Shown here in pieces: positions 10,943 through 49,181 of a stretch of DNA of 64,000 nucleotides. The stretch is from Pseudomonadota bacterium. Lineage in GTDB: Bacteria > Pseudomonadota > Gammaproteobacteria > Pseudomonadales > Azotimanducaceae. The stretch spans positions 1,301,978-1,365,977 of the forward strand of contig CP170502.1 in assembly GCA_047947185.1 (NCBI GenBank), read 5' to 3'. The position numbers and the translations under genes are program-made. Numbering within the stretch: the first letter of the stretch is position 1; every line of letters begins with the position of its first letter. The notes under the pieces were generated by a model. It saw only the letters and a program-made list of their open reading frames with translations, did no database searches and was not told the origin of the DNA.

Positions 10943-11415
10943 CAGTCGGGCTCTAGCTCGCTGTTGGGCAGGCATTCAATACGCGACAAGGCCGCAAAAT
11001 AGTCGGGCGAGAGGTGCGGCTCACCTTCCAGCAGGTGATTGAGGTACCAGCGGGCGGGCTTTAGCCCCTCGGTAATCCATTCGTCGTTGGCCAGGTAAAC
11101 CCAGGCATGCTGGGGTTTGTTGTCGGCATAAACGGGCAACGCGAGCCGGGAATAACGCACCGGGTGGCCCTCAAAAGGATCCATGACCTCTATCTGCTGC
11201 AGGTCCAGCAGCCGATAGAGTACTCCTTCAACCCGGTGGCCCGGGGCCGCGACCACGTTGGCAGAGGCGGCCCCCGGGTATTTGACAGACCGCTTGTTAA
11301 ACACCAGGCGAAAATCGTTCAGCACACCCCCAAAATACTCCGTATAGCGCATCTGGCGCTGACTCACCCGGCGTGGGTTCATGTTGCTGCCATAGGCAAA
11401 GTAGAAGGCTGCCAT
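10942..11415 (-). CDS. Gamma-glutamylcyclotransferase (AIG2-like) family protein
   Basis: N-terminal YFAYGSNMN motif and a conserved Glu context (DPFEGHP). Confidence 0.85.
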   Translation of the reverse strand: MAAFYFAYGSNMNPRRVSQRQMRYTEYFGGVLNDFRLVFNKRSVKYPGAASANVVAAPGHRVEGVLYRLLDLQQIEVMDPFEGHPVRYSRLALPVYADNKPQHAWVYLANDEWITEGLKPARWYLNHLLEGEPHLSPDYFAALSRIECLPNSELEPD

Positions 11416-11663
11416 CAGCCTTTACGAATCCAGTAGGTATAGGTTTCGCCTTCCTGCTCTTCTGCCAGCATCTCGTGATTCAGAAACTTGCAGAAATTGG
11501 CAAAGTCCCAGCGCGTCGAGGGATCTGTGGCCACAATCTTGATCACCTGGCCCGACGCCATATCCATCATGCGGTTGCGGGTGACCATCAAGGGTTCCGG
11601 ACAGCGCAGCCCGGTAGCGTCCACAAACTCGTCTTCCGTCGTAACAGGTTGTTTTGCCTTCAT
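11415..11663 (-). CDS. tusA: Sulfurtransferase TusA
   Basis: 82 aa with the DATGLRCPEP active-site motif. Confidence 0.92.
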   Translation of the reverse strand: MKAKQPVTTEDEFVDATGLRCPEPLMVTRNRMMDMASGQVIKIVATDPSTRWDFANFCKFLNHEMLAEEQEGETYTYWIRKG

Positions 11664-11734
11664 TTTTTAGCCTTCACTTATGGTCATGCGCCTGTATAAT
11701 CTTGACCCCTCCATTGTAGCAAGATTGGCCCGAC

Positions 11735-12022
11735 ATGATCCGCGTACTCATTGAGCGATACATTGCCGAGGGACTCGAGCATTACTACGATTCAACCATC
11801 AAGCGCACCATCAGTTCCGTGGTGCAGGCACCGGGATGCCTGTCGGGTGAATCGTTGGTTGATGCCAATAACCGACAGCGGCGAATTGTCATGTCCAAGT
11901 GGCAATCCGCAGAAGACTGGGAAAACTGGTACCGCTCCGACGAACGCCGCCAGGTGATTGCTGAAATCATGCCCATGCTTGAAGGCGGGGAAAAGATTAC
12001 CATGCTGGAACTCACCCGTTAA
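11735..12022 (+). CDS. Antibiotic biosynthesis monooxygenase (ABM) domain protein
   Basis: 95-aa ferredoxin-like protein with the typical ...SKWQSAEDWENW... ABM segment. Confidence 0.7.
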   Translation: MIRVLIERYIAEGLEHYYDSTIKRTISSVVQAPGCLSGESLVDANNRQRRIVMSKWQSAEDWENWYRSDERRQVIAEIMPMLEGGEKITMLELTR

Positions 12023-12031
12023 GCCGGGCTC

Positions 12032-12874
12032 GTGAGACCGCGGTACCGTCAACTTTTACCTTTTGCGGGCCTGTTATCAGCCCTGCTGCTTTCCGCCTGT
12101 GTCGCCGGACCCGAGGCAATGCCAGCAGCCGCAACCCTGCAGGTCAGGCAGATCATGCAGGCAGGCAAACCGTTATCCTACTGGATTTTTGTTCCTCCGC
12201 AGCCAGCGCAGTCGCCACGGCCGATGCTACTCGTGCTTCCCGATGACCAGGACACGGCGTATGACTTTCTCCGCACCGGCGATTTCATGACCGATGCCAC
12301 AGCCAGGGGTTACATCGTTGTGGCACCAGATACCGGTGGCGTGACAGGGCCAGGTATCATCAGTGACATTGCCACGGCGGTGTCTGCCAGCCTTGCTGTC
12401 GATGAATCCCGGGTGCTGATTGCGGGCCAAGGCCGGGGTGGTGAAATTGCGCTGAATCTGATCCGCTCACACGCACACCCGTTTGCCGCGGGGGCTTTTA
12501 TGGCGCCAAGCACTGAAGCACCCCCGGCAGAAGTACCCGCCGAAGCACCCGCAAGGGCCATTCCGCTGATGCTGACCTATGGCGAGGCCAATGCCGGCAA
12601 CCTCGCAAACGCCAGGCAATGGGCCAGCCGGCTGGGTTGCGGGATGAGCCTGCAGGCAAGAAACGAGTTCGTTGAACAGGTCGGCTTCTATGGTTGCCGT
12701 AACGGCGCAGAGGTCATCTACCAGACCATCGAGGGACTGGCAGGTTGGACCGGCAGGGTCGTGTCGAACGCCACCGGGCGTGCTGGTTCAGTCAGCCTGA
12801 CCACGCTGGCCTGGCAATTCTTCGACAGGACCGCACCCGGCGACTCATCGCAGGGGTCAAACAGGCGCCCGTAA
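12032..12874 (+). CDS. Lipoprotein, alpha/beta-hydrolase-like (esterase / PHB-depolymerase-like) without a recognisable nucleophile motif
   Basis: Lipobox LLSAC. The layout resembles LpqC/PHB-depolymerase esterases (YWIFVP...LLVL..., IVVAPD, RVLIAG.G.GG). The nucleophile elbow reads GQGRG instead of GxSxG. Confidence 0.45.
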   Translation: MRPRYRQLLPFAGLLSALLLSACVAGPEAMPAAATLQVRQIMQAGKPLSYWIFVPPQPAQSPRPMLLVLPDDQDTAYDFLRTGDFMTDATARGYIVVAPDTGGVTGPGIISDIATAVSASLAVDESRVLIAGQGRGGEIALNLIRSHAHPFAAGAFMAPSTEAPPAEVPAEAPARAIPLMLTYGEANAGNLANARQWASRLGCGMSLQARNEFVEQVGFYGCRNGAEVIYQTIEGLAGWTGRVVSNATGRAGSVSLTTLAWQFFDRTAPGDSSQGSNRRP

Positions 12875-38516: not shown

Positions 38517-39189
38517 GCGTACCCTCAAGCTTTTGGCTGTTGTAGTGCTGGTTTGCGCCAGCAATCCCGCTTATACGAAAGAAAACACCATCGTGGTTTT
38601 CGGCGACAGTATCAGTGCCGCCTACGGGATGGAACAGGATGAAGGATGGGTTAACCTGCTGGCCAAACGCATCGCTCAAAACGGCCTCCCCTGGACGGTC
38701 GTCAATGCCAGCGTCAGCGGTGAAACCTCCGGCGGTGGACTCGTAAGATTACCCAAAACCCTGGAACTTCACCAACCGGATCTTCTGATCCTTGAACTGG
38801 GTGGCAATGACGGCCTCCGGGGTTACCCGATTGCCCGGATCCGCGACAACCTCAGCAGCATGGTGGAACAGAGCCAGCAGGTGGGCGCCAGCGTGCTGTT
38901 GATTGGTATGGTACTGCCACCCAACTACGGCAGACGCTATATCCAGGCATTCGAGGGCATCTTTCCGGAGGTCGCGGAGCAGCACGGCGTACCCCTGATT
39001 CCTTTTTTGCTCGACGGCATTGCCACCCCCGCCAGCCTGGTACAGCGAGATGGTATTCATCCCCGTCCGGAAGCCCAACCCATGATCATGGAGCAGGTCT
39101 GGCAGGCCCTTGCCGGTACCCTGATGGCCGGACCGCAGGAGACATCAGAAAAGATCGAGTTGCAGGGTGGCCTTATCGGCGACCAGTAG
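38500..39189 (+). CDS. tesA: SGNH hydrolase: acyl-CoA thioesterase I / lysophospholipase L1 (TesA-like)
   Basis: Signal peptide followed by the GDSISAAYG block I, GGNDG block and DGIHP block. Divergent from ybbA as in E. coli. The start is uncertain (ATG 38500 or TTG 38494). Confidence 0.88.
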   Translation: MISDVTRTLKLLAVVVLVCASNPAYTKENTIVVFGDSISAAYGMEQDEGWVNLLAKRIAQNGLPWTVVNASVSGETSGGGLVRLPKTLELHQPDLLILELGGNDGLRGYPIARIRDNLSSMVEQSQQVGASVLLIGMVLPPNYGRRYIQAFEGIFPEVAEQHGVPLIPFLLDGIATPASLVQRDGIHPRPEAQPMIMEQVWQALAGTLMAGPQETSEKIELQGGLIGDQ

Positions 39190-39870
39190 TTTTTCCCGTT
39201 CGCGCCAGTCTGGCATCACCCGGTCCATCAGCGCATAAAACGCCTTGTTGTGGGGAAAGTGGCGCAGGTGACACAGCTCATGGGTCACAACAAAATCGAT
39301 GGCGGCAAGCGGCTTCTGCATCAGCAGGCTATTGAGACAAATTTCGCCTGCACTTGAGCAGCTACCCCATCGAGCCCGCATTTTCCTGACGGTCACGGCA
39401 GCAACGGGCAGATCCGCCCGGAACCGCTGGCGACAGAGTTGAACCCGCCCGGGGAGCAGCTTCAGGGCCTCAGTCCGGTAGAACCGGTTAATGGCCTGTT
39501 CAACACGCTGACTGTCGGATGGATCCTGGCACCTTACCCGCATCTCGTTGCCCAGCGTACAGACCTGCTGCGTCCGCCCCTCGGCCAGCGAGAGTCGCAG
39601 GGAACGGCCAAGGTAATCATGACGCTCCCCCTGCACATATCGGGGCGGCTGGGGCAGGCGCTGTACAGCCAGCGTCGTCAGGGATTCATCAATCCAGGCA
39701 CGGCGGGATTCAAGGAAAGCGTTGATTTCCGTCCAGGGACACCGGAGTGGTGCCCGAAGCTCTACCGGCCGATCCGCAAATACGTGGATCGCCATGGTCT
39801 TTCGCCGCATGCGCAGGATCTTGACAGGCACCTCCCGCGCACCACAGACCACCAGACGCAGATCATTCAC
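39145..39870 (-). CDS. M48-family metallopeptidase (YgjP-like, DUF45)
   Basis: The HELCHLRHFPHN (HExxH) motif sits near the C-terminus, as is typical of YgjP/DUF45. Confidence 0.8.
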   Translation of the reverse strand: MNDLRLVVCGAREVPVKILRMRRKTMAIHVFADRPVELRAPLRCPWTEINAFLESRRAWIDESLTTLAVQRLPQPPRYVQGERHDYLGRSLRLSLAEGRTQQVCTLGNEMRVRCQDPSDSQRVEQAINRFYRTEALKLLPGRVQLCRQRFRADLPVAAVTVRKMRARWGSCSSAGEICLNSLLMQKPLAAIDFVVTHELCHLRHFPHNKAFYALMDRVMPDWREREKLLVADKATLQLDLF

Positions 39871-39876
39871 ACGCTT

Positions 39877-40185
39877 TCAGGGCTTCCGGGCACAAGGTGG
39901 AGACATGGGCGCGTCGCCCTTCCGTGATACCCATTCCGAGGCGGTGTAGGTATGTATGGCCAGCGCATGGATCCGGTTCGCCAGTTCGTCCGCAAGAATA
40001 CGATTGACCATCTGGTGCCTGGCAACCAGCCGCAGCCCGTCAAATTCCGGCGACACCAGCACCACTTTAAAGTGCGATTCTGATCCTGCCGGCACATTGT
40101 GGTTATGGCTCTCATTCTGCACTTCCAGGTGCAGCAGCGGCAGGGATTGCGCAAGCTTGTCCTCGATGGTCGCCTGGACGGACAC
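39877..40185 (-). CDS. bolA: BolA family transcriptional regulator
   Basis: LEV.NES..HNVPAGSESHFKVVLVS...HALA.HTYT is nearly colinear with E. coli BolA. Confidence 0.92.
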   Translation of the reverse strand: MSVQATIEDKLAQSLPLLHLEVQNESHNHNVPAGSESHFKVVLVSPEFDGLRLVARHQMVNRILADELANRIHALAIHTYTASEWVSRKGDAPMSPPCARKP

Positions 40186-40187
40186 GG

Positions 40188-42266
40188 TTAACCCTTTTCG
40201 GTCAGGTGAAAAACGCCATCCCAGTCTTTGGGTGGCGGTGATGCCAGGTAGGCTTCACTGCGCGCCAGGAAAGTCTTGCTTGGTCCGTCACCGGGATCAA
40301 TCGACAGGCACAGTTTGAAAGCAGCTTTTGCCGCCGCAAAGTCCTGTTCCAGATAAAGCCTGCGCGCTTTCTCAAATTGCGTCATGAGGTCAGCCCGTAG
40401 TCCCGTGGTCTTGCCATGCCTTTCCAGCAACTGGTAGATGGTGACGGGTTTGCGTTTGCCAACCACCAGAATCCTGTCCAGTTCACGGACATCAACGTCA
40501 TTACGACAAAGTTCGTAGGTCGATTCCGAGATCAGCGTACCGGAGTTATATGCCTTGTTGGCACCTTCAAGCCGGGCCGCGAGATTCACCGCGTCTCCCA
40601 TGATGGTGTAGTTCATACGCTGGGCCGAGCCCATGTTGCCGACAACCATGGGCCCCGAATTGAGTCCCATCCGCACGTTGATTTCGGGATAACCTTTGGT
40701 CATCCAACGTTCCCTTAGCGGCACCAGCGCGTTTTTCATGTCGATGGCAGCGAGACAGGCGCGTTTTGCATGGTCTTCCTGGATGGAAGGCGCACCCCAG
40801 AAAGCGATAATGGCGTCACCCTCAAACTTGTCAACCGTCCCCTCAGCCGCAATGATGATGTTACACATCTCGGTCAGGTAGTCGTTCAGCACGTTTACCA
40901 GTTCCGTGGGTGACATGTTTTCAGAGAAGGTGGAGAAAGCGGCAATATCGGAAAAATAGGCCGTCATTTCCCGTTCTTCACCCCCCAGGGACAGCTTCTT
41001 GGGATCCCGAACCAGATCGGCCACAACCCGGGGTGAAAGGTACTGACCAAAAGCGTCACGGATCTGGGCTTTCTGCCCCATTTCAACGATGTAAAAACGC
41101 GCATTCATCACCACAATGGCAAAAATTGATGCGATGAGAATGTAACTCATCGACAGGACCAGCCCCAGGTAGACATATGCCCAGGTGGCCAGGGCAATAA
41201 ACACGACAATGACGCCAATACTCACAGTGTTGCGCGGCAGCGGGTTGGAAATCTTGACCGTGGCAAGCAGCGCCACCATCACCGCCAGCGCAACCAGGAA
41301 CTCGGTCAGCAGCGAGGCCGCCTGCAGCGGGCCATTGCGCAGGATGCTGCTGATGGAGTTTGCAATAACTTCCACACCGTAGACGTTGCCAACCGGCGTC
41401 TCGAACTCGTCATGTGCAACCTCCGCTACCTCTCCAATCAGCACTATTCGGTCGGCAACGAGATAACTCATTTCTTCCAACTCTTCCTGGTCTTCCGGGA
41501 ACAGGATATCGCCGGCAGAAATACCAGCCACCTCATGCAACTGCACAGTGCCGCCGTCACCATCAGCCGGCAGCAGTGGATAATCAATGTAGATGTCGTT
41601 GAACTGGTCGAGCGGTATCTGTATCTCATCGCCAATTGCCAGTGTATTTCCATGAAGTTCGGGTTCCACACCCAGATAGTTGGCCACGGTGCGAACGGCA
41701 AAAGACCATTCCCCGTCAGCGGCAATCTCGTGATAGAGGCGCAAGCGCGTGATGCTTTCCGAAATCGCGCTGTTGGGCGAGATATTCGAATAGCCGGAAC
41801 TTGTCACCTGGTCAAACAGGTCGATAGCATGATTCACCACACCCTGGTAGCGGCCGTCCTCAATCACCGCCTGCGACACCAGGACCACGTTGCCCGCCTC
41901 CACCAATGCCTCGGCAAGTGCCGGGTCCTCCCCGTAGGCACTGTTGAAGTCGAGCAGGATGTCGACGCCAATCACCGCGGCACCCATCCGGGAAAGCCGC
42001 CTGATGATTTCAGCCAGGTCAACACGGCGCAGCGGATAAGCGCCATATTCCTCATAGAACAGCTCATCCGTGTAGACGATGACAACATCATCGAGGGGGG
42101 TTGTGTGGTATTCGTCAGCGAGATGGGTGCGGGCAATCTGTCGGTAGGACAGCGTTTCGTCTTCCAGCAGTGAGAACGCTTCCTGGTACTCAAAGACAAC
42201 CGCCAGTGCAAACACCACGGCAATCGCAAAGAGATCGTAACGCCGTTTTCCTGTGCCCATGCACAC
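40188..42266 (-). CDS. CHASE2 sensor domain - class III adenylate/guanylate cyclase
   Basis: N-terminal TM helix, periplasmic CHASE2-like region, 3 TM helices, then a cyclase core (MTAYFSDIAAFSTFSE...FEGDAIIAFWGAP...GLNSGPMVVGNMGS..R.NYTIMGDAVNLAARLE). Confidence 0.88.
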   Translation of the reverse strand: MCMGTGKRRYDLFAIAVVFALAVVFEYQEAFSLLEDETLSYRQIARTHLADEYHTTPLDDVVIVYTDELFYEEYGAYPLRRVDLAEIIRRLSRMGAAVIGVDILLDFNSAYGEDPALAEALVEAGNVVLVSQAVIEDGRYQGVVNHAIDLFDQVTSSGYSNISPNSAISESITRLRLYHEIAADGEWSFAVRTVANYLGVEPELHGNTLAIGDEIQIPLDQFNDIYIDYPLLPADGDGGTVQLHEVAGISAGDILFPEDQEELEEMSYLVADRIVLIGEVAEVAHDEFETPVGNVYGVEVIANSISSILRNGPLQAASLLTEFLVALAVMVALLATVKISNPLPRNTVSIGVIVVFIALATWAYVYLGLVLSMSYILIASIFAIVVMNARFYIVEMGQKAQIRDAFGQYLSPRVVADLVRDPKKLSLGGEEREMTAYFSDIAAFSTFSENMSPTELVNVLNDYLTEMCNIIIAAEGTVDKFEGDAIIAFWGAPSIQEDHAKRACLAAIDMKNALVPLRERWMTKGYPEINVRMGLNSGPMVVGNMGSAQRMNYTIMGDAVNLAARLEGANKAYNSGTLISESTYELCRNDVDVRELDRILVVGKRKPVTIYQLLERHGKTTGLRADLMTQFEKARRLYLEQDFAAAKAAFKLCLSIDPGDGPSKTFLARSEAYLASPPPKDWDGVFHLTEKG

Positions 42267-42361
42267 TCCGCCCTGTGATTATATTGATGCGACGGCAGCC
42301 GCCAGGCGACGCCATCGCACCATCTTAATCTATCGCGGAGGTGCTTTACAAAGTGGCGGGT

Positions 42362-43309
42362 CTAGGGCCCGTCCGCCAGTGCAGCGTTGTAAAGCCGTGC
42401 TTCATTTTCCCGCAGGTTATCCAGCTTGAGATCCTGGTAGGACTGAATCAGCAGGGGGCGCATCTCGTGATCATCCGGATACTCCTGAAAGTATTCGCGA
42501 TAGGCATCCATGGCAGCAACGTACATGTTGTGTGCTTCAAGCACGCTGGTCTCCAGGAATACATCCTCTTCGATCCCGGCAAGTTCCTTGTTGATCTTCG
42601 CCTCTTCCGCGTCGCTGATCCACACGAGCGTTGATTTGCTGCGAGGAATGTAAACAGTTCCGTCCTTGTCCAGCACCTCAACGTGATAAGTGTATTCGCC
42701 CGGCTTGAGACCGCTGACCGTGTACCTGATCATCTCGGAAGTTGACTGGGCAGGAATCTCTACCGCTTTGCCGTCAATCACCAGTCGATAAGAATACTCA
42801 GGGCACGCATTTCGCCACACAAGATCGGGGTGGGATTTGGACAGGGTCACAGTGCGGATCGTGCGAACCTTGTTGTCACAGGCCTGTTCGTCACCGCTGG
42901 TATAGCTGCGCCGAACTGTTGTATAACGCTGGGCCTTGGCAAACTTGTTGGCAAGACTTTCAAAAATGCTGACCGATTCCTCTTTCGGTTTCGACAGGCT
43001 GCCTTCAACCACCGAAACCCCCTGGTCTTCTACCTGTACAATCGTGTTTGCACCCAGTTCCTGGGACAAACCGGTTTCCTGGTTGATCAACTTGCCACTG
43101 CCATCTTTACCGGTCTTGATCTGGTAGCCAGAGAACAGATACTTGGTCCGCCGTACCGGTCGCCAGTTATCGCCGCTGCGACTGTAGGCCACGTCACCTT
43201 CAACCTGAACCAGTTTGGCAACGGGTGCTTCCCTGGCAATTGCAGGGTTGGTCGCCCCTACCGCGAACAGGACAAGCATTACCACTACGCCCATGGACTT
43301 TAGTTTCAT
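42362..43309 (-). CDS. Secreted FecR-like domain protein with helical C-terminal region
   Basis: Signal peptide MKLKSMGVVVMLVLFAVGATNPAIA. FecR-like beta segment (VQVEGDVAYSR...YLFSGYQIKTGKDGSGKL). AAGGAG RBS. Confidence 0.65.
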   Translation of the reverse strand: MKLKSMGVVVMLVLFAVGATNPAIAREAPVAKLVQVEGDVAYSRSGDNWRPVRRTKYLFSGYQIKTGKDGSGKLINQETGLSQELGANTIVQVEDQGVSVVEGSLSKPKEESVSIFESLANKFAKAQRYTTVRRSYTSGDEQACDNKVRTIRTVTLSKSHPDLVWRNACPEYSYRLVIDGKAVEIPAQSTSEMIRYTVSGLKPGEYTYHVEVLDKDGTVYIPRSKSTLVWISDAEEAKINKELAGIEEDVFLETSVLEAHNMYVAAMDAYREYFQEYPDDHEMRPLLIQSYQDLKLDNLRENEARLYNAALADGP

Positions 43310-43414
43310 TGCTGAACTCCTTTTATAAAGTGGTCGGGTTCACACACCTGGTGCACTTCCCTTACCGGTACCATCTTAATGGGTACACACACAGATTGTA
43401 CGACCATTCATCGG

Positions 43415-44032
43415 TCAATCCTGCCCGTCCGGCAGCACATATTCCATCAGCACTCCGGCAACTTCAATACGATCGCCATGTTCAAGTTTGCGTGACTTGA
43501 AACCGGTTGGCTCACCATTGACCAGCGGCACGCGTTCCCGGTCCTTGCCGCCATCCACGTGAATAATAAAGTGGCCCTGCGGGCGACGCGAAATGGCGGC
43601 CACCTGCACGCCCGGTTCACCCACCGTTGTCAGGCCTTCCTCCAGCGGCAGGACCTTACCTGCATTCTTGCCATTCAGCACCCGCAATTGCCCACTCAGT
43701 GACGCCGGGGTCGGAGCCACCGGGCGGACCGGCACTTCCGGCGCACCGCTGATAACAAACTTGAGGCGGTGTTCGCCAATGGTCACCACGTCATCGTTGG
43801 CCAACAGGTACTGGCCGTTGATGCGTTTGCCACGGACATAAATACCGTTGGTGCTGCCCAGATCCTCTATGGCGTACTTGCCGGAACTGACCATTATGCG
43901 GGCGTGGTTCCCGCTCACTGCCGGATCCTTGATGGAGATATCACACTCCGAACGGCGGCCGATGGTTAGTCCCTGCCCACTGAACACAAACTGATCAATC
44001 GGCTTCTCGTCTTTAATGACAATTATCTTCAA
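43415..44032 (-). CDS. FHA domain protein (one canonical and one divergent FHA-like domain)
   Basis: LTIGRRSECDISIKDPAVSGNHARI...STNGIYVRG is a canonical FHA. The second half is FHA-like (TTVGEPGV...HFIIHV...VNGEP). Confidence 0.85.
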   Translation of the reverse strand: MKIIVIKDEKPIDQFVFSGQGLTIGRRSECDISIKDPAVSGNHARIMVSSGKYAIEDLGSTNGIYVRGKRINGQYLLANDDVVTIGEHRLKFVISGAPEVPVRPVAPTPASLSGQLRVLNGKNAGKVLPLEEGLTTVGEPGVQVAAISRRPQGHFIIHVDGGKDRERVPLVNGEPTGFKSRKLEHGDRIEVAGVLMEYVLPDGQD

Positions 44033-44065
44033 CGCTTGCTTGCCTTCATGACGTTTACCAAATAC

Positions 44066-44899
44066 CTACTCAAACCAGTTCACAATCCGGTTGAAAAGGT
44101 TGCCCTGCGCCGGAAACGGTTTGCTGATCCTGGCGAGTACCACCGAAATATTGTCCTTTCCACCACTGGCGTTTGCCACATTAACCAGATGACCGGCCGT
44201 TTCAGCCAGATTGCTGCCCAGTTCGCGAAACGTCGTTTCAATATCATCATCCGTCACCAGGTCTGTCAGTCCATCAGAACACATCAGGTAGATGTCACCA
44301 ACCCGGGCCTTGTGCTCGTGAACTTCTGCTTCCACCGTCGGCGCCACCCCAAGTGCCCGGGTCACAACGTTTTTCCTGTTCGATTCCCGGGCTTCTTCCT
44401 TGGTGTAGAGGCCCTTGTCGATCAGTTCCTGGACAAAACTGTGATCTTTGGTGATCTGCTCGAGCTTATTGTCGCGAAAGCGGTAAACCCGTGAGTCGCC
44501 GATATGCCCAACATAGACCTTGTTGTCGTGAAACAGGCTGACCAGCACTGTGGTACCCATACCGCGACACTGCGGCTGGGTTTGGGATACATGGAATACA
44601 GCGCTGTTGGCCTTCTCGATCAGGTATTTGACAACCCGTGAGCAGGCGGGCAGGTCATCGGTGTCCGCGGGCAGTTCCTCAGCAACGCCACTCTGTCCCT
44701 CGCTGAAGGCAACAAGGTCGTCAATCAGCAGGTGTACTGTCATGGAACTCGCGACCTCACCGGCGTTCAGGCCGCCCATGCCGTCGGCCAGAACGGCAAT
44801 CCCGAGGTGTTCCACGCAACTGACATAATCCTCGTTGTGATCTCGCACCTGACCAACATCAGTCTGGGCAACAAAATCAATTCTCCCTTTCACATTCAT
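44066..44899 (-). CDS. PP2C-family Ser/Thr protein phosphatase
   Basis: TDVGQVRDHNEDY, LADGMGG and CSDGLTD motifs. The start overlaps the kinase stop (ATGA). Confidence 0.92.
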   Translation of the reverse strand: MNVKGRIDFVAQTDVGQVRDHNEDYVSCVEHLGIAVLADGMGGLNAGEVASSMTVHLLIDDLVAFSEGQSGVAEELPADTDDLPACSRVVKYLIEKANSAVFHVSQTQPQCRGMGTTVLVSLFHDNKVYVGHIGDSRVYRFRDNKLEQITKDHSFVQELIDKGLYTKEEARESNRKNVVTRALGVAPTVEAEVHEHKARVGDIYLMCSDGLTDLVTDDDIETTFRELGSNLAETAGHLVNVANASGGKDNISVVLARISKPFPAQGNLFNRIVNWFE

Positions 44900-47271
44900 G
44901 TTTTTGTGGCACTCATCTCTGAATCCAGGCGTTCAAGGCAGATCTTCAGGTGTTCTGCCATTTTCTTGCCACTGGGGTAACGTTTCTCCGGACGTTTGCC
45001 AATCGCAATATGTATAACTTTCCGCAGGCTCGGCGGGATGTCCGGCCGCTGTTTTTTCACGTCAATCGGTGGGTCATTGACTATAGAATACATCAGCGTC
45101 GCCATGCTATCGCCCTTGAATGGCAAGGCCCCGGTGGACAGCTGGTACAGCACAACACCCAGCGAAAAAAGGTCGGAGCGGCCATCAACCCGCTTGCCCA
45201 TACACTGTTCCGGTGACATGTAATTGGGGGTACCCAGCACCGTGCCTGTTCGGGTCTTGCTTGAATCCGTGATGCGGGCGATACCAAAGTCCGTAATTTT
45301 CACCTTGCCCGAATCGGGGTCGTACATGATGTTGGAGGGTTTGATATCCCGGTGGACAACGTTGTTGCTGTGCGCATAATCCAGCGCCTCGGCACAGTCA
45401 ATAACTATCTGGATAACCCTGTCCAGGGGTAGCAGGCTGTCAGGTTTGATATGCTTGTCGAGGTCATATCCTTTCAACAGTTCCATGGCGATGTACGCAA
45501 GGTCACTTTCTTCCCCGGCATCGTAAATGGCAACAATGTTCGGATGGTTCAGGCGCCCGGCGGACTCCGCTTCACGGAAAAACCTCTCCTTGACCTCGGT
45601 GAGCTCATCCGGTGCAAACTCGGTTGACAGCGCCATGGTCTTGATCGCCACCTCCCGGTTGATCTTGGGGTCCTTGCCAAGATAAACCACACCCATGGCA
45701 CCCTGTCCCAACTCCTTTTCAACCTGATAGCGACCAAGCATCGGCTTCTCGATGGTCCCGTCCTCGTTCATCAGGGTTGATCCGAACAGGCTCTGGGTTG
45801 CGCCGCCCATCAGCACGGCGTCTTCCATGGACTCACAGCGCTTGATACGTTTTTCTATGTCGCGAAAGCCAGGCATGGTTTCCTGGATGAACTCATAAGC
45901 TGTCTGCGCCTTGTTGAACTGGCGTTTGCGCTCATAATCCAGGCCCAGGTTATACACCAGCTCAAAGGTGGCTGCCTCGCGCGGACACCGACGGTATTTT
46001 TCGAAGGCCGCGTCCAGTTGTCCCTGGCCCTGGTAGGCAAGGCCAAGCATGCGGTTGCTCTCGGCAGAGTCTGCTGCGGATTTTTCATGGGCGCGCTCGG
46101 ACAGGATATAGAAGCGCAGGCTCATGAGTATCAGGGTACCGAGACCCGCCAGCATGGCATAGGTCATTGATATGACAAGCCCCGCACTAACGTAGGCAAG
46201 CGCAGCCAGGACCACAAAACCGGCGTAGACCAGCGCGGCTGCGACGAGGCGCATCCACAGCCCCCTGAGGAGGCCGGTCAGCAACAGCGTCACCAGGAAC
46301 AGACCGGTTGCCAGCAATTCAACCCATTCGCTCGCTGGGCGCAGGGGCGCACCGTTCAGCAGGGTGTGTATGGTGTCGGCGATGATTTCGACACCGTATA
46401 CAGGTCCGACGGGGGTATTGAACTTGTCGTGCGTCACCTCCCAGGTATCCCCCACCAGCACAATCTTGCCCCGGAAGATGGCCTCATATTCAGCAACTTC
46501 TTCCGCCGCAAGATCTTCCAGTTCGAGAATCTCCAGCGCGGAAAAGCCAGCCTGGCCCTCGAACAGGAACCGTGTCCCGGGATCAAGTCTGGGAAAATCA
46601 ATATAGAAATCACCAAACTGGTCCAGGGGTACCCGCAGCTCACCAATCACCAGGGTATTGTCGTCGAGAGAAGGTTTTACACCGAGATACATGGCCAGTG
46701 CCTGGATGGCGATGGGCCAGCCGTCCCGGTTGTTGGTAATTTCCTCATGAATTCGCACGCGCGCCAGGTTGTCGATAATGGCGCTGGTTGGCTGCAGGTT
46801 GGAATAACCGCTGGCTGCGACCGCATTCAGCGTCTCCGTGGGATAGGCCAGGCCCACAAACTCACCATCATCAAAATTCGCATAGGAGACCAGCAGCACA
46901 TTGCCCGCTTCACTGAACATCGCTGCGGTAGGCTCATCCTCCCCATAGGAACTGCGGAAATCCATCAGGAAGTCGAGCACAACCACTTCCGCCCCGAAAT
47001 TCGCCAGTGTACGGGCAATCCGTCCAAGGTCGGTCCGGCGAAACGGGAAGCTGCCATACTCCTCGTACAGCGCTTCGTCCAGGGCAACAATCATGATGTC
47101 CTCGTTGAGCTGAACCAGGTCCGGATCCCCAAAGGTGGTCCGGAGAATATGCCGGAAGGAAATGCTCTGATCTTCAAGCAGGGAGAATACCTCATACCGC
47201 TCCGCCGGAATGGTCAGCAGAAACAACACAAGGGTAAGAAACACGTCCCAACGTTTTAGTGGATTTTTCAT
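44896..47271 (-). CDS. CHASE2 sensor domain - TPR-like linker - Hanks-type Ser/Thr protein kinase
   Basis: The CHASE2-like N-terminal half is paralogous to that of the cyclase at 40188. C-terminal kinase motifs: GQGAMGVVYLG, VAIK, HRDIKPSN, DFGIA, GTPNYMSPE. Confidence 0.9.
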   Translation of the reverse strand: MKNPLKRWDVFLTLVLFLLTIPAERYEVFSLLEDQSISFRHILRTTFGDPDLVQLNEDIMIVALDEALYEEYGSFPFRRTDLGRIARTLANFGAEVVVLDFLMDFRSSYGEDEPTAAMFSEAGNVLLVSYANFDDGEFVGLAYPTETLNAVAASGYSNLQPTSAIIDNLARVRIHEEITNNRDGWPIAIQALAMYLGVKPSLDDNTLVIGELRVPLDQFGDFYIDFPRLDPGTRFLFEGQAGFSALEILELEDLAAEEVAEYEAIFRGKIVLVGDTWEVTHDKFNTPVGPVYGVEIIADTIHTLLNGAPLRPASEWVELLATGLFLVTLLLTGLLRGLWMRLVAAALVYAGFVVLAALAYVSAGLVISMTYAMLAGLGTLILMSLRFYILSERAHEKSAADSAESNRMLGLAYQGQGQLDAAFEKYRRCPREAATFELVYNLGLDYERKRQFNKAQTAYEFIQETMPGFRDIEKRIKRCESMEDAVLMGGATQSLFGSTLMNEDGTIEKPMLGRYQVEKELGQGAMGVVYLGKDPKINREVAIKTMALSTEFAPDELTEVKERFFREAESAGRLNHPNIVAIYDAGEESDLAYIAMELLKGYDLDKHIKPDSLLPLDRVIQIVIDCAEALDYAHSNNVVHRDIKPSNIMYDPDSGKVKITDFGIARITDSSKTRTGTVLGTPNYMSPEQCMGKRVDGRSDLFSLGVVLYQLSTGALPFKGDSMATLMYSIVNDPPIDVKKQRPDIPPSLRKVIHIAIGKRPEKRYPSGKKMAEHLKICLERLDSEMSATKT

Positions 47272-47427
47272 TGCTTTTTTCCCAGGGACTGAGGCCAGGC
47301 CAGGCCCACTCCAATCGGATACCCGCCGATTTTGCGCTATCGCTGCAGCCTTGTCTAATCACGACACTTTCTCGCACCGGCGCCCGAAATCGGGTATCCT
47401 CGAGCGCTTTCAGCAGCCCGCAGAGAA

Positions 47428-48201
47428 TTGATGTTAACGGTTATTTCCCCGGCCAAAACGCTCGATTTTGATTCACCCGCGCAGACTACCAGGGCAACCC
47501 TGCCAGAGCATCTCAACCGGTCCAGGGAACTGGTATCGGTACTGCGCCGTGCTTCTCCCAAAGACCTGAGCCGCCTCATGGGGATCAGCCCAAAGCTGGC
47601 GGCGCTGAATGTTGAGCGTTACCAGGCGTGGAAACCCCCGTTTACAACCGCAAACGCCAGGCAGTCGCTGCTGGCTTTCAAGGGCGATGTGTATCTGGGC
47701 ATCGAGGTGGAAAACTGGTCGCAGCGTGATTTGACCCACGCCCAGAAGACGCTACGTATCCTCTCAGGCCTGTATGGTGTGTTGCGCCCCCTGGATCTTA
47801 TTCAACCCTACCGACTGGAAATGGGGACAAAACTGGCCAACAGCAAAGGCAAGGACCTCTATGCCTTCTGGGGCGAAGAAATTACGCGCAGACTCGCTGA
47901 TGAACTCAGTGAACATAGAGACAAGACGCTGATCAACCTGGCGTCCAATGAATATTTCAAGTCTGTCCACCCGGATGCCCTGCCCGGTCAGGTCATTACC
48001 CCGGTATTCAAGGATTACAGCAGGGGCAGCTACAAGATACTGAGTTTTTTTGCGAAGAAAGCCAGGGGGCAGATGGCCGCATTTATCGTCAAAAACCGCA
48101 TTGCAAAGCCAAAAGGACTTAAAGAGTTTGACGCCGACGGCTACCGGTTCAACGAGGCCTTCTCCAGTGAAACTGACTGGGTCTTTACCCGCAAGGCATG
48201 A
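47428..48201 (+). CDS. yaaA: Peroxide stress protein YaaA (UPF0246)
   Basis: MLTVISPAKTLDF N-terminus and an overall YaaA-like sequence. Confidence 0.9.
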   Translation: MMLTVISPAKTLDFDSPAQTTRATLPEHLNRSRELVSVLRRASPKDLSRLMGISPKLAALNVERYQAWKPPFTTANARQSLLAFKGDVYLGIEVENWSQRDLTHAQKTLRILSGLYGVLRPLDLIQPYRLEMGTKLANSKGKDLYAFWGEEITRRLADELSEHRDKTLINLASNEYFKSVHPDALPGQVITPVFKDYSRGSYKILSFFAKKARGQMAAFIVKNRIAKPKGLKEFDADGYRFNEAFSSETDWVFTRKA

Positions 48202-49181
48202 GCGCAAACCGACTCGGCATTATCGTTAACCCCATGTCGGGGCGGGACGTCCGTCGCGTCGCGGCCCGCGCCAGCACCAGCACCCACGAAAACAAGCAGC
48301 AGCAGGTCACACGACTTGTGCTGGGCGCTTTTGCCAATGGTGTGGATGAAATTTTCCTGGTGAACGAACCCTTCCGCATCAGTGCCCGCGCTATCGAAAA
48401 TTTGCCACAGTTCCACCAGGTCACCATGCTGGATATTCCCCTGACTCACACCGCAAGCGACAGTATTGCAGCAGCGCGCGCCATGTGGGAGCGGGGTTGT
48501 CGAACCTTTATTGTGCTGGGCGGAGATGGAACCAACCGCGTGGTTGCCGATGCCCTGCCGGGTGCCCGACTGTTACCCCTGTCGACCGGTACCAACAACG
48601 TCTTTCCCTTCATGGTTGAAGCCTCGGTCGCTGGCGCTGCGGCCGGTATCGTGGCCAGCGGACGCGTGGACGTCGCGACCGTCTGTCCACCCTGCAAGCG
48701 CGTCCACGTCAGGGTAAACAACCTGACCGAAACGGCCCTTGTTGATGCCGTGCTGCTGCAGGATGATATTCGTGGCAGCCTGCTGCCGTTTGCCCCGGAC
48801 AAGATTACCCACCTGTTCCTGGCCAGGGCAGAGCCAGCGTCCATCGGGATGTCCCCGATCGGCGGATACATCCTGCCCTGCCATGACAACGACAACTTCG
48901 GACTGTTGATCGAAACGGGGATCCCTGCCAGGTACCAGGTCACCGCGCCTGTGTCAGCCGGGCTTTATGGCGACATTCTTATCAAGTCAATCCGGCAGGT
49001 TCCGCTGGACGAGACCGTTGTATTTGATGGGACGGGGATACTGGGGTTTGATGGTGACCGACTCCTGACCGCAGACCAGGACAGGATCGAAGTCACTTTT
49101 CGCAGGGATGGCCCGGCCATCATCAATCCCGCGGGGGTCATGGAAGCGGCCGTTGCCGCCGGTGCATTCACCCGAAACTGA
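48198..49181 (+). CDS. NAD kinase / diacylglycerol kinase-like (GGDGT motif) protein
   Basis: LGIIVNPMSGR N-terminus and IVLGGDGTNRVV. ATGA overlap with the yaaA stop. Confidence 0.6.
   Translation: MSANRLGIIVNPMSGRDVRRVAARASTSTHENKQQQVTRLVLGAFANGVDEIFLVNEPFRISARAIENLPQFHQVTMLDIPLTHTASDSIAAARAMWERGCRTFIVLGGDGTNRVVADALPGARLLPLSTGTNNVFPFMVEASVAGAAAGIVASGRVDVATVCPPCKRVHVRVNNLTETALVDAVLLQDDIRGSLLPFAPDKITHLFLARAEPASIGMSPIGGYILPCHDNDNFGLLIETGIPARYQVTAPVSAGLYGDILIKSIRQVPLDETVVFDGTGILGFDGDRLLTADQDRIEVTFRRDGPAIINPAGVMEAAVAAGAFTRN

Follow-up and report, generated by a model that had tools for sequence, protein, structure and literature searches.

A putative branched envelope-signalling cassette around an mtxA-CHASE2 adenylate cyclase pair in an Azotimanducaceae-type gammaproteobacterium

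A 64,000-nucleotide (nt) stretch of the genome of a Pseudomonadota bacterium (GenBank assembly GCA_047947185.1, contig CP170502.1, positions 1,301,978 to 1,365,977; hereafter, the window) contains five open reading frames (ORFs) in the region 40188-47271, all on the minus strand. In 5′ to 3′ order, they encode a CHASE2-TPR-Hanks kinase, a PP2C phosphatase, an FHA protein, a secreted MtxA-family protein and a CHASE2 class III cyclase. The ORF map and the Pfam and NCBIfam assignments bear out the gene order and common direction given in a preliminary description of this DNA. We suggest that the region is a branched envelope-signalling cassette organized around the pair of mtxA and the CHASE2 adenylate cyclase, with MtxA as a shared periplasmic partner; a probability of about 0.55 is assigned to this reading. 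The mtxA-cyclase pair is the conserved core of the cassette, and the kinase/PP2C/FHA genes form an arm that is an add-on specific to the OM182/Azotimanducaceae-type lineage. The five genes are the following.

44896-47271, minus strand: receptor Ser/Thr kinase (STK), 791 amino acids (aa); Pfam CHASE2 at 106 bits, Pkinase at 189 bits and weak TPR matches.
44066-44899, minus strand: PP2C Ser/Thr phosphatase, 277 aa; NCBIfam Stp1/IreP equivalog, Pfam PP2C_2 and PP2C.
43415-44032, minus strand: FHA adaptor, 205 aa, TTG start; Pfam FHA at 79 bits, AlphaFold2 (AF2) model and Foldseek.
42362-43309, minus strand: MtxA-family secreted protein, 315 aa; Pfam DUF7354, MtxA_IG-like and MtxA_C, AF2 model and Foldseek.
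40188-42266, minus strand: receptor adenylate cyclase, 692 aa; Pfam CHASE2 at 121 bits and Guanylate_cyc at 82 bits.

The sensor regions of the kinase and the cyclase are specific paralogs. Over 391 residues of CHASE2 and transmembrane (TM) sequence they are 44% identical (E = 7e-95), and the Pfam CHASE2 (PF05226) scores of 106 and 121 bits compare with a cut-off of 26.3. Both domains are set in a TM-domain-3xTM frame with hydrophobic segments at the flanks. Against either twin, generic CHASE2 domains from a set of 30 loci across the phylum showed a median identity of 19-20% and a maximum of 27%, while the median among the generic domains themselves was 27%. In BLAST, the twin pair reached about 290 bits and the generic comparisons about 40-50 bits. 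The similarity is therefore far above that between random family members, and the paralogy proposed earlier holds. The shared motifs quoted for it are also present, except that the kinase reads AMYLGVKP where ANYLGV.P had been claimed. The genome holds exactly two CHASE2 domains and one MtxA protein, all in this cluster; CHASE2 was found in 82 of the 121 Pseudomonadota genomes sampled.

In a maximum-likelihood tree, built like the other trees of this work with a quick method, the kinase CHASE2 domains (K), the cyclase CHASE2 domains of the same lineage (C) and the mtxA-linked cyclase CHASE2 domains of other lineages (D) formed one clade, which is split from generic CHASE2 by a long branch. Thirty-two positions are invariant in this clade yet rare in generic CHASE2, and 29 more belong to the general family core. 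The mean identity is 47% between K and D and 43% between C and D, with C on a longer stem. All three possible branching orders of K, C and D pass the approximately unbiased (AU) test (p = 0.47-0.57). The K domains form a monophyletic group with the same internal branching as C, and this points to co-inheritance of the kinase and the cyclase.

A pattern scan of GTDB species genomes gave 66 loci encoding MtxA relatives. In 57 of the 60 gene-complete loci (gammaproteobacterial, Magnetococcales and others), mtxA is followed by the CHASE2 cyclase gene, and this order was seen in every lineage sampled, so the idea of a periplasmic partner gene linked to a CHASE2 subclass is well founded. Outside the OM182/Azotimanducaceae-type group, that is, in Magnetococcales and about ten other Pseudomonadota families (49 of 401 sampled genomes), mtxA almost always precedes the gene of an orthologous CHASE2 cyclase that has the same tail and a catalytic domain 64-68% identical, without the arm. 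Within the group, the recurrent order is yaaA, kinase, PP2C, FHA, mtxA, cyclase, bolA and ygjP. Synteny of all five genes extends to at least 22 further genomes of this gammaproteobacterial lineage, which answers the question of conservation elsewhere, and the cassette is vertically inherited. In the window's own family, 38 of 121 genomes encode MtxA, and they cover 16 of 44 genera. The protein family is small and amounts to 174 clusters (50% identity) in a set of 1.84 billion representatives.

The MtxA protein, encoded by a single-copy gene, consists of a signal peptide (MKLKSMGVVVMLVLFAVGATNPAIA, with cleavage after AIA as read from the sequence), a DUF7354 beta domain, an Ig-like domain and a TPR-like C-terminal domain. 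The Pfam scores were 97.3 bits for DUF7354, 94.2 for MtxA_IG-like and 77.9 for MtxA_C (cut-offs of 31.4, 26 and 27, respectively). Its AF2 model has a predicted local distance difference test (pLDDT) score of 84, and the top Foldseek match was 4Z29_A (E = 9e-19, 40% identity, TMt 0.86, root-mean-square deviation 2.0 Å), although the whole-model comparison is dominated by Ig-like matches and does not judge the N-terminal domain. A profile of the N-terminal domain searched against the PDB retrieved only MtxA itself (the MtxA sequence of 4Z29, E = 1.7e-27) and no FecR structure.

This protein had been described as FecR-like, a label that has to be replaced. Pfam FecR (PF04773) gave no match in it even at E = 10, and a genome-wide FecR scan found seven other loci, mtxA not being among them. 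When DUF7354 was aligned with 18 FecR domains using hhalign, the probability was 43% and E = 2.5e-4, against E = 8.6e-3 for the reversed control, so that any resemblance to FecR is remote at best. The three Pfam domains and the 40% identity to 4Z29 assign the protein to the MtxA family. The name MtxA is historical, and its magnetotaxis connotation is misleading.

The cyclase comprises a TM helix, CHASE2, three TM helices, a class IIIb cyclase domain and a short C-terminal TPR-like tail. Its best PDB match is Pseudomonas aeruginosa CyaB (3R5G), a class IIIb adenylate cyclase (E = 1.3e-38). The alignment with CyaB contains FSDI, DKFEGD, YTIMG and VNLAARLE; with residue roles taken from established class III cyclase knowledge, both metal-binding Asp residues, the Lys/Thr pair and the transition-state Asn and Arg are present. 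Since the specificity pair is Lys/Thr and not Glu/Cys and the best match is CyaB, cyclic AMP (cAMP) is the expected product. The preliminary description had left the choice between cAMP and cGMP to these residues, which favor the former and not the latter. The cyclase ORF as listed opens at GTG 42266 (window 42258-42266); an ATG lies two codons downstream (42260), 5 nt past a GGAG, and judging by this spacing is probably the true start.

An anti-phage defence module with a Pycsar-like cyclase and/or a defence kinase was considered here, as the PADLOC models PycC and PD-T4-6 match the catalytic domains. These matches reflect generic similarity of the catalytic domains, and no gene for an effector activated by cyclic nucleotides (cNMP) adjoins the cassette, whose neighbors are yaaA, bolA and ygjP. 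The Lys/Thr pair and the CyaB match point to an adenylate cyclase, the sensors are periplasmic, and the housekeeping position from yaaA to bolA-ygjP is fixed and vertically inherited across the bacterial family. The defence reading, extremely improbable on these grounds, was rejected.

The kinase has an N-terminal TM helix, a periplasmic CHASE2 domain (approximately residues 22-331), three TM helices, a cytoplasmic TPR-like linker (approximately 400-510) and a Hanks domain (515-765). The presence of GxGxxG (LGQGAMG), VAIK, HRDIKPSN, DFG and SPE identifies it as a Hanks-type Ser/Thr kinase. Among orthologues, the CHASE2 domain is 59-87% and the kinase domain 79-97% identical. The PP2C protein scores 249.1 bits against the NCBIfam Stp1/IreP equivalog (cut-off 230), and its metal-binding motifs are intact. 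The overlap of the kinase stop with the PP2C start (ATGA), reported previously, is present, and by this overlap the phosphatase appears translationally coupled to the kinase.

The FHA protein includes a canonical FHA domain (residues 1-95), a variable Pro-rich linker and a strongly conserved C-terminal beta domain (approximately 112-200). In an alignment of 25 orthologues, the GR, SxxH and NG residues that bind phosphothreonine (pThr) are invariant in the first domain, and the C-terminal domain is the more conserved of the two. Foldseek matched the AF2 model to the FHA domains of GarA, OdhI and Ki67 (TMt 0.8-0.9). The second domain lacks the Arg of the GR motif, and its AF2 model is beta-rich (pLDDT 65-88). 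A Pfam scan of 17 sequences of this domain returned weak S4_2 and YscD matches and nothing else; the YscD-type matches were N-terminal (E = 1e-3 in 4 of the 17 members; TIGR02500, 4.6e-5). The hhalign comparison of the two domains gave a probability of 1%, i.e., no signal, and the PDB profile search with the second domain produced only spurious HisF fragments and no relatives. Its homologues are confined to its own protein family. Thus, of the double FHA architecture proposed earlier, one canonical domain stands and the second is not established, with weak YscD-type matches and no PDB relatives; the C-terminal domain is possibly a degenerate FHA.

Elsewhere in the same genome (G000:C1:626127-626750; L180:5127-5750), a gene without a kinase neighbor encodes a protein of 207 aa that has two canonical FHA domains. 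Both domains of this protein resemble the first domain of the window FHA protein, and neither matches the C-terminal domain of the latter.

Based on these features, we propose the following scheme. MtxA would be exported to the periplasm and serve a special CHASE2 subclass there as its accessory subunit or co-sensor; in this lineage, the subclass would have two members. One receptor would be a homodimeric class IIIb cyclase making cAMP. The second, paralogous receptor would be the Hanks Ser/Thr kinase; the FHA adaptor would recognize its phosphorylation, which the co-translated PP2C would reverse. The kinase arm would be an accessory, dispensable branch whose most likely role is to tune the cAMP output or run parallel to it, possibly through binding of the FHA protein to phosphothreonines on the kinase and/or the cyclase. 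We infer a physical interaction between MtxA and the CHASE2 domains, a shared cue and a link between the FHA protein and the cyclase. A connection of the cAMP and phosphorylation outputs appears plausible by analogy, because a cyclase-FHA fusion is encoded beside PP2C and STK genes in the same genome and a distant lineage has an STK gene upstream of the mtxA-cyclase pair.

The outputs could also be wired in series, the kinase arm having regulation of the cyclase as its main purpose. The CHASE2 kinase would phosphorylate the cyclase (possibly in its TPR tail), the FHA protein would bind the phospho-site and gate cAMP synthesis, and PP2C would reset the system; with such wiring, MtxA might be the partner of just one receptor. 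FHA-fused nucleotide cyclases do exist, one of them in this genome next to STK and PP2C, and Bdellovibrio DgcB (FHA-GGDEF) is among the structural matches of the FHA protein. The strong conservation of the FHA C-terminal domain, found only in the cassette, and the cytoplasmic TPR-like segments on both receptors would also fit such a relay. However, the kinase and PP2C genes are kept without the FHA gene in some relatives (L033, L037, L039, L040 and L052), many genomes have the cyclase without the arm, and no phospho-acceptor site was identified. A relay of this kind is thus a possible but doubtful arrangement. A stronger version, in which MtxA is an obligate periplasmic ligand-presenting subunit of the CHASE2 subclass, one MtxA pool feeds both receptors and the FHA protein physically couples the phosphorylated kinase to the cyclase, so that cAMP synthesis becomes a phospho-gated coincidence detector for an envelope cue, is considered unlikely; if true, it would be the first mechanistic handle on what CHASE2 senses.

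The composition of the arm was assessed in the 50 loci with complete upstream sequence. Kinase, PP2C and FHA genes were all present in 22 of them; four had the kinase and PP2C genes without the FHA gene, one had PP2C and FHA only, and eight retained arm fragments or a lone PP2C gene. In eight gammaproteobacterial loci of this set, yaaA directly adjoins mtxA. Very close pairs differ in the presence of the arm (L013/L017, L004/L007 and L033/L036). Most relatives are metagenome-assembled genomes (MAGs), in which some split genes may be assembly errors, but the deletions lie within single contigs. Given the monophyly of the K clade, its mirroring of C and the number of changes required (see below), the arm was ancestral to the radiation and lost many times. 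The cluster thus holds as a syntenic five-gene set and not as an indivisible unit, the arm having been repeatedly lost around the mtxA-cyclase core.

Such losses also suit the view that the genes are adjacent by descent only: the kinase would have originated in a tandem duplication of the cyclase sensor with a domain swap and would now control unrelated targets, the two systems being functionally independent. The arm was lost repeatedly and independently and the mtxA-cyclase pair was not, possible internal promoter and terminator elements are present, and other FHA proteins and kinases in the genome are potential partners. On the other hand, the kinase CHASE2 keeps the clade-specific residues of the mtxA-linked cyclases across the whole radiation, the position and order of the arm are constant wherever it is present, and the arm has co-diversified with the cyclase. 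We therefore regard descent alone as decidedly unlikely.

The regulatory features of the cassette are located in three noncoding segments.

42267-42361, minus strand: mtxA-cyclase spacer with a stable GC-rich hairpin (RNA fold).
43310-43414, minus strand: FHA-mtxA spacer with ATTAAGATGGT and CCACTTT(A/G)TAAA motifs, read from the sequence.
47272-47427, no strand assigned: intergenic region between the divergent yaaA (plus strand) and kinase (minus strand) genes (ORF map).

The genes are tightly packed, the ATGA overlap being followed by spacers of 33, 105 and 95 nt. The yaaA-kinase intergenic region likely contains the cassette promoter; a promoter-like site is found there on the minus strand at 47357-47329. 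The mtxA-cyclase spacer folds at -45.7 kcal/mol (z = -4.05), and the outer stem of the hairpin pairs CACCUCCGC with the GGAG Shine-Dalgarno sequence and the cyclase start region. In relatives (e.g., L010:7693-7806, L016, L056, L014 and L020), the same spacer has a conserved 17-18 bp hairpin with a U tract, a TATCTTATAAGATA center and compensatory stem changes (z of about -7), which by its sequence looks like an intrinsic terminator. In the window and in L001, it is replaced by the GC-rich hairpin, which according to the predicted fold sequesters the cyclase ribosome-binding site and start. The hairpins suggest that MtxA may be made in excess over the cyclase.

The ATTAAGATGGT and CCACTTT(A/G)TAAA motifs are present in both spacers (42319-42329 and 43370-43380; 42345-42361 and 43322-43339). 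In several relatives (L008, L014, L010 and L040), TTAAGAT-like motifs precede mtxA; they might represent either a -10-like element or the site of a regulator. The FHA-mtxA spacer may hold an internal promoter or regulatory site; it showed no significant RNA fold (z = -0.16). A short ORF in this spacer (MNGRTICVCTH) was rejected, having no conservation in relatives. An Rfam scan of 39000-48500 gave no match.

Several points weigh against a branched cassette with MtxA as the shared partner, and in particular against obligatory coupling of its arms. Some relatives are FHA-less, the arm has been lost repeatedly, and there are signs of internal regulation. On the MtxA and cyclase tree, the presence of the arm requires at least ten changes, and the mtxA-cyclase pair is kept throughout; since loss or erosion of the kinase arm took place at least about ten times and the pair stayed, the two arms are apparently able to work independently. 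Co-regulation is not assured, because of the terminator-like hairpin in relatives and the possible promoter before mtxA. The AU test (p = 0.47-0.57) does not distinguish in-lineage duplication from transfer as the origin of the kinase CHASE2. Finally, deletion of mtxA in Magnetospirillum gryphiswaldense gave no detectable phenotype, magnetotaxis included (PMC4439547).

The closest known system is the mtxA cluster of magnetotactic bacteria. In these bacteria and in Phaeospirillum, the gene after mtxA encodes a CHASE2 adenylate cyclase, and the structure of an Ig-like/TPR-like fragment of MtxA has been solved (Davidov et al. 2015, PMC4439547). Like this cluster (M. gryphiswaldense MGR_0208; 4Z29), the window encodes a secreted protein with the same three domains (40% identity across the crystallised portion) and, directly after mtxA, a CHASE2 adenylate cyclase with the same C-terminal tail. 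In contrast, the window host is a non-magnetotactic-type, OM182/Azotimanducaceae-like gammaproteobacterium, and its cassette adds the upstream CHASE2 kinase/PP2C/FHA genes with a sensor paralogous to that of the cyclase. The loci of magnetotactic bacteria and Magnetococcales examined contained mtxA and the cyclase gene only.

FecR-domain genes adjoin CHASE2 receptors in Burkholderia (PMC5192318), and in a CHASE2 cyclase cluster of Campylobacterota, FecR is accompanied by genes for a phosphodiesterase and a TPR protein (PMC9239204). In our set, FecR ORFs were found within 1.5 kb of 4 of the 30 generic CHASE2 genes. As in the window, a periplasmic accessory gene adjoins the CHASE2 receptor in these operons (in Burkholderia, the BiofilmReg LysM-FecR protein and a CHASE2 histidine kinase). 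The Campylobacterota cluster also shares the cAMP output and the presence of TPR, and window MtxA joins a beta domain, at best remotely FecR-like, and a TPR-like domain in one protein. Unlike the partners in these operons, MtxA is below the Pfam FecR thresholds, the window CHASE2 domains fall in a clade of their own and share about 20% identity with generic ones, and two receptors of different output flank a single accessory gene. The CHASE2 class III cyclases CyaD1, CyaD2 and CyaK of Sinorhizobium meliloti are also comparable; they need the envelope protein NsrA for activation and respond to an external, proteinaceous cue (PMC13001267). NsrA, however, is an outer-membrane beta-barrel and not MtxA, and there is no paralogous kinase arm in that system. 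The rule of a CHASE2 receptor plus an envelope accessory protein therefore has precedents.

Genes for a Hanks kinase, PP2C and an FHA protein are also found together in PpkA-PppA-Fha1 of the type VI secretion system (T6SS) and in mycobacterial PknB-PstP-FhaA/B, and like these triads the window has overlapping kinase and phosphatase genes and a canonical pThr-binding FHA domain. It differs from them in that the sensor is CHASE2 and not a PASTA or von Willebrand-type domain, the FHA protein has its own conserved C-terminal domain, and the triad sits inside a cAMP-producing cassette. The preliminary description had likened the trio to the T6SS switch while noting no T6SS genes. The search of the whole 5.85-Mb genome for TssC/VipB gave no match, the Escherichia coli control being positive; so the absence of a T6SS stands, the analogy has no target here, and a T6SS switch was rejected. 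In the literature searched, a CHASE2 kinase/PP2C/FHA arm on an mtxA-cyclase pair with a sensor of the same clade was not found.

CHASE2 is among the commonest bacterial extracytoplasmic sensor domains, and we know of no established ligand or activation mechanism for it; likewise, to our knowledge, MtxA has a crystal structure but no known function. The presence of MtxA distinguishes a separate clade of CHASE2 domains, and around one mtxA gene this clade can be connected to two different outputs. This leads to a testable hypothesis, namely that MtxA is a CHASE2 co-receptor and that phospho-signalling is coupled to cAMP. The natural deletions of the arm provide ready-made comparison strains, and the cassette is a tractable entry point to the function of CHASE2 and MtxA.

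As to the neighboring genes, yaaA adjoins the cassette in nearly all relatives. Downstream of the cyclase gene, bolA and ygjP follow with gaps of 2 and 6 nt and may be co-transcribed with it. The position of bolA and the YgjP-like metallopeptidase gene (window 39145-40185) is kept in nearly all gammaproteobacterial relatives and not in other lineages.

The cyclase-FHA fusion of the same genome (G000:C1:4595000-4601700; L181:3016-9648) is a 299-aa class III cyclase that carries an FHA domain at its C-terminus. The genes beside it encode PP2C, a Ser/Thr kinase of 1103 aa that contains an FGE-sulfatase domain, and a cNMP-binding/rhodanese protein.

Cassette contigs were also found under MAGs named Flavobacterium sp., Candidatus Fonsibacter ubiquis and an alphaproteobacterium (L028, L042 and L066); these contigs are probably mis-binned. 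Variant arrangements were observed in other lineages (L101:6532-8664; L111:4892-9319; L100:5002-7020 and 11259-12248). They include two tandem mtxA copies ahead of one cyclase gene, a 1475-aa TPR-CHAT protein encoded directly upstream of mtxA, and a soluble STK encoded upstream of the mtxA-cyclase pair with an STK-PEGA-FGE-sulfatase protein downstream of the cyclase.

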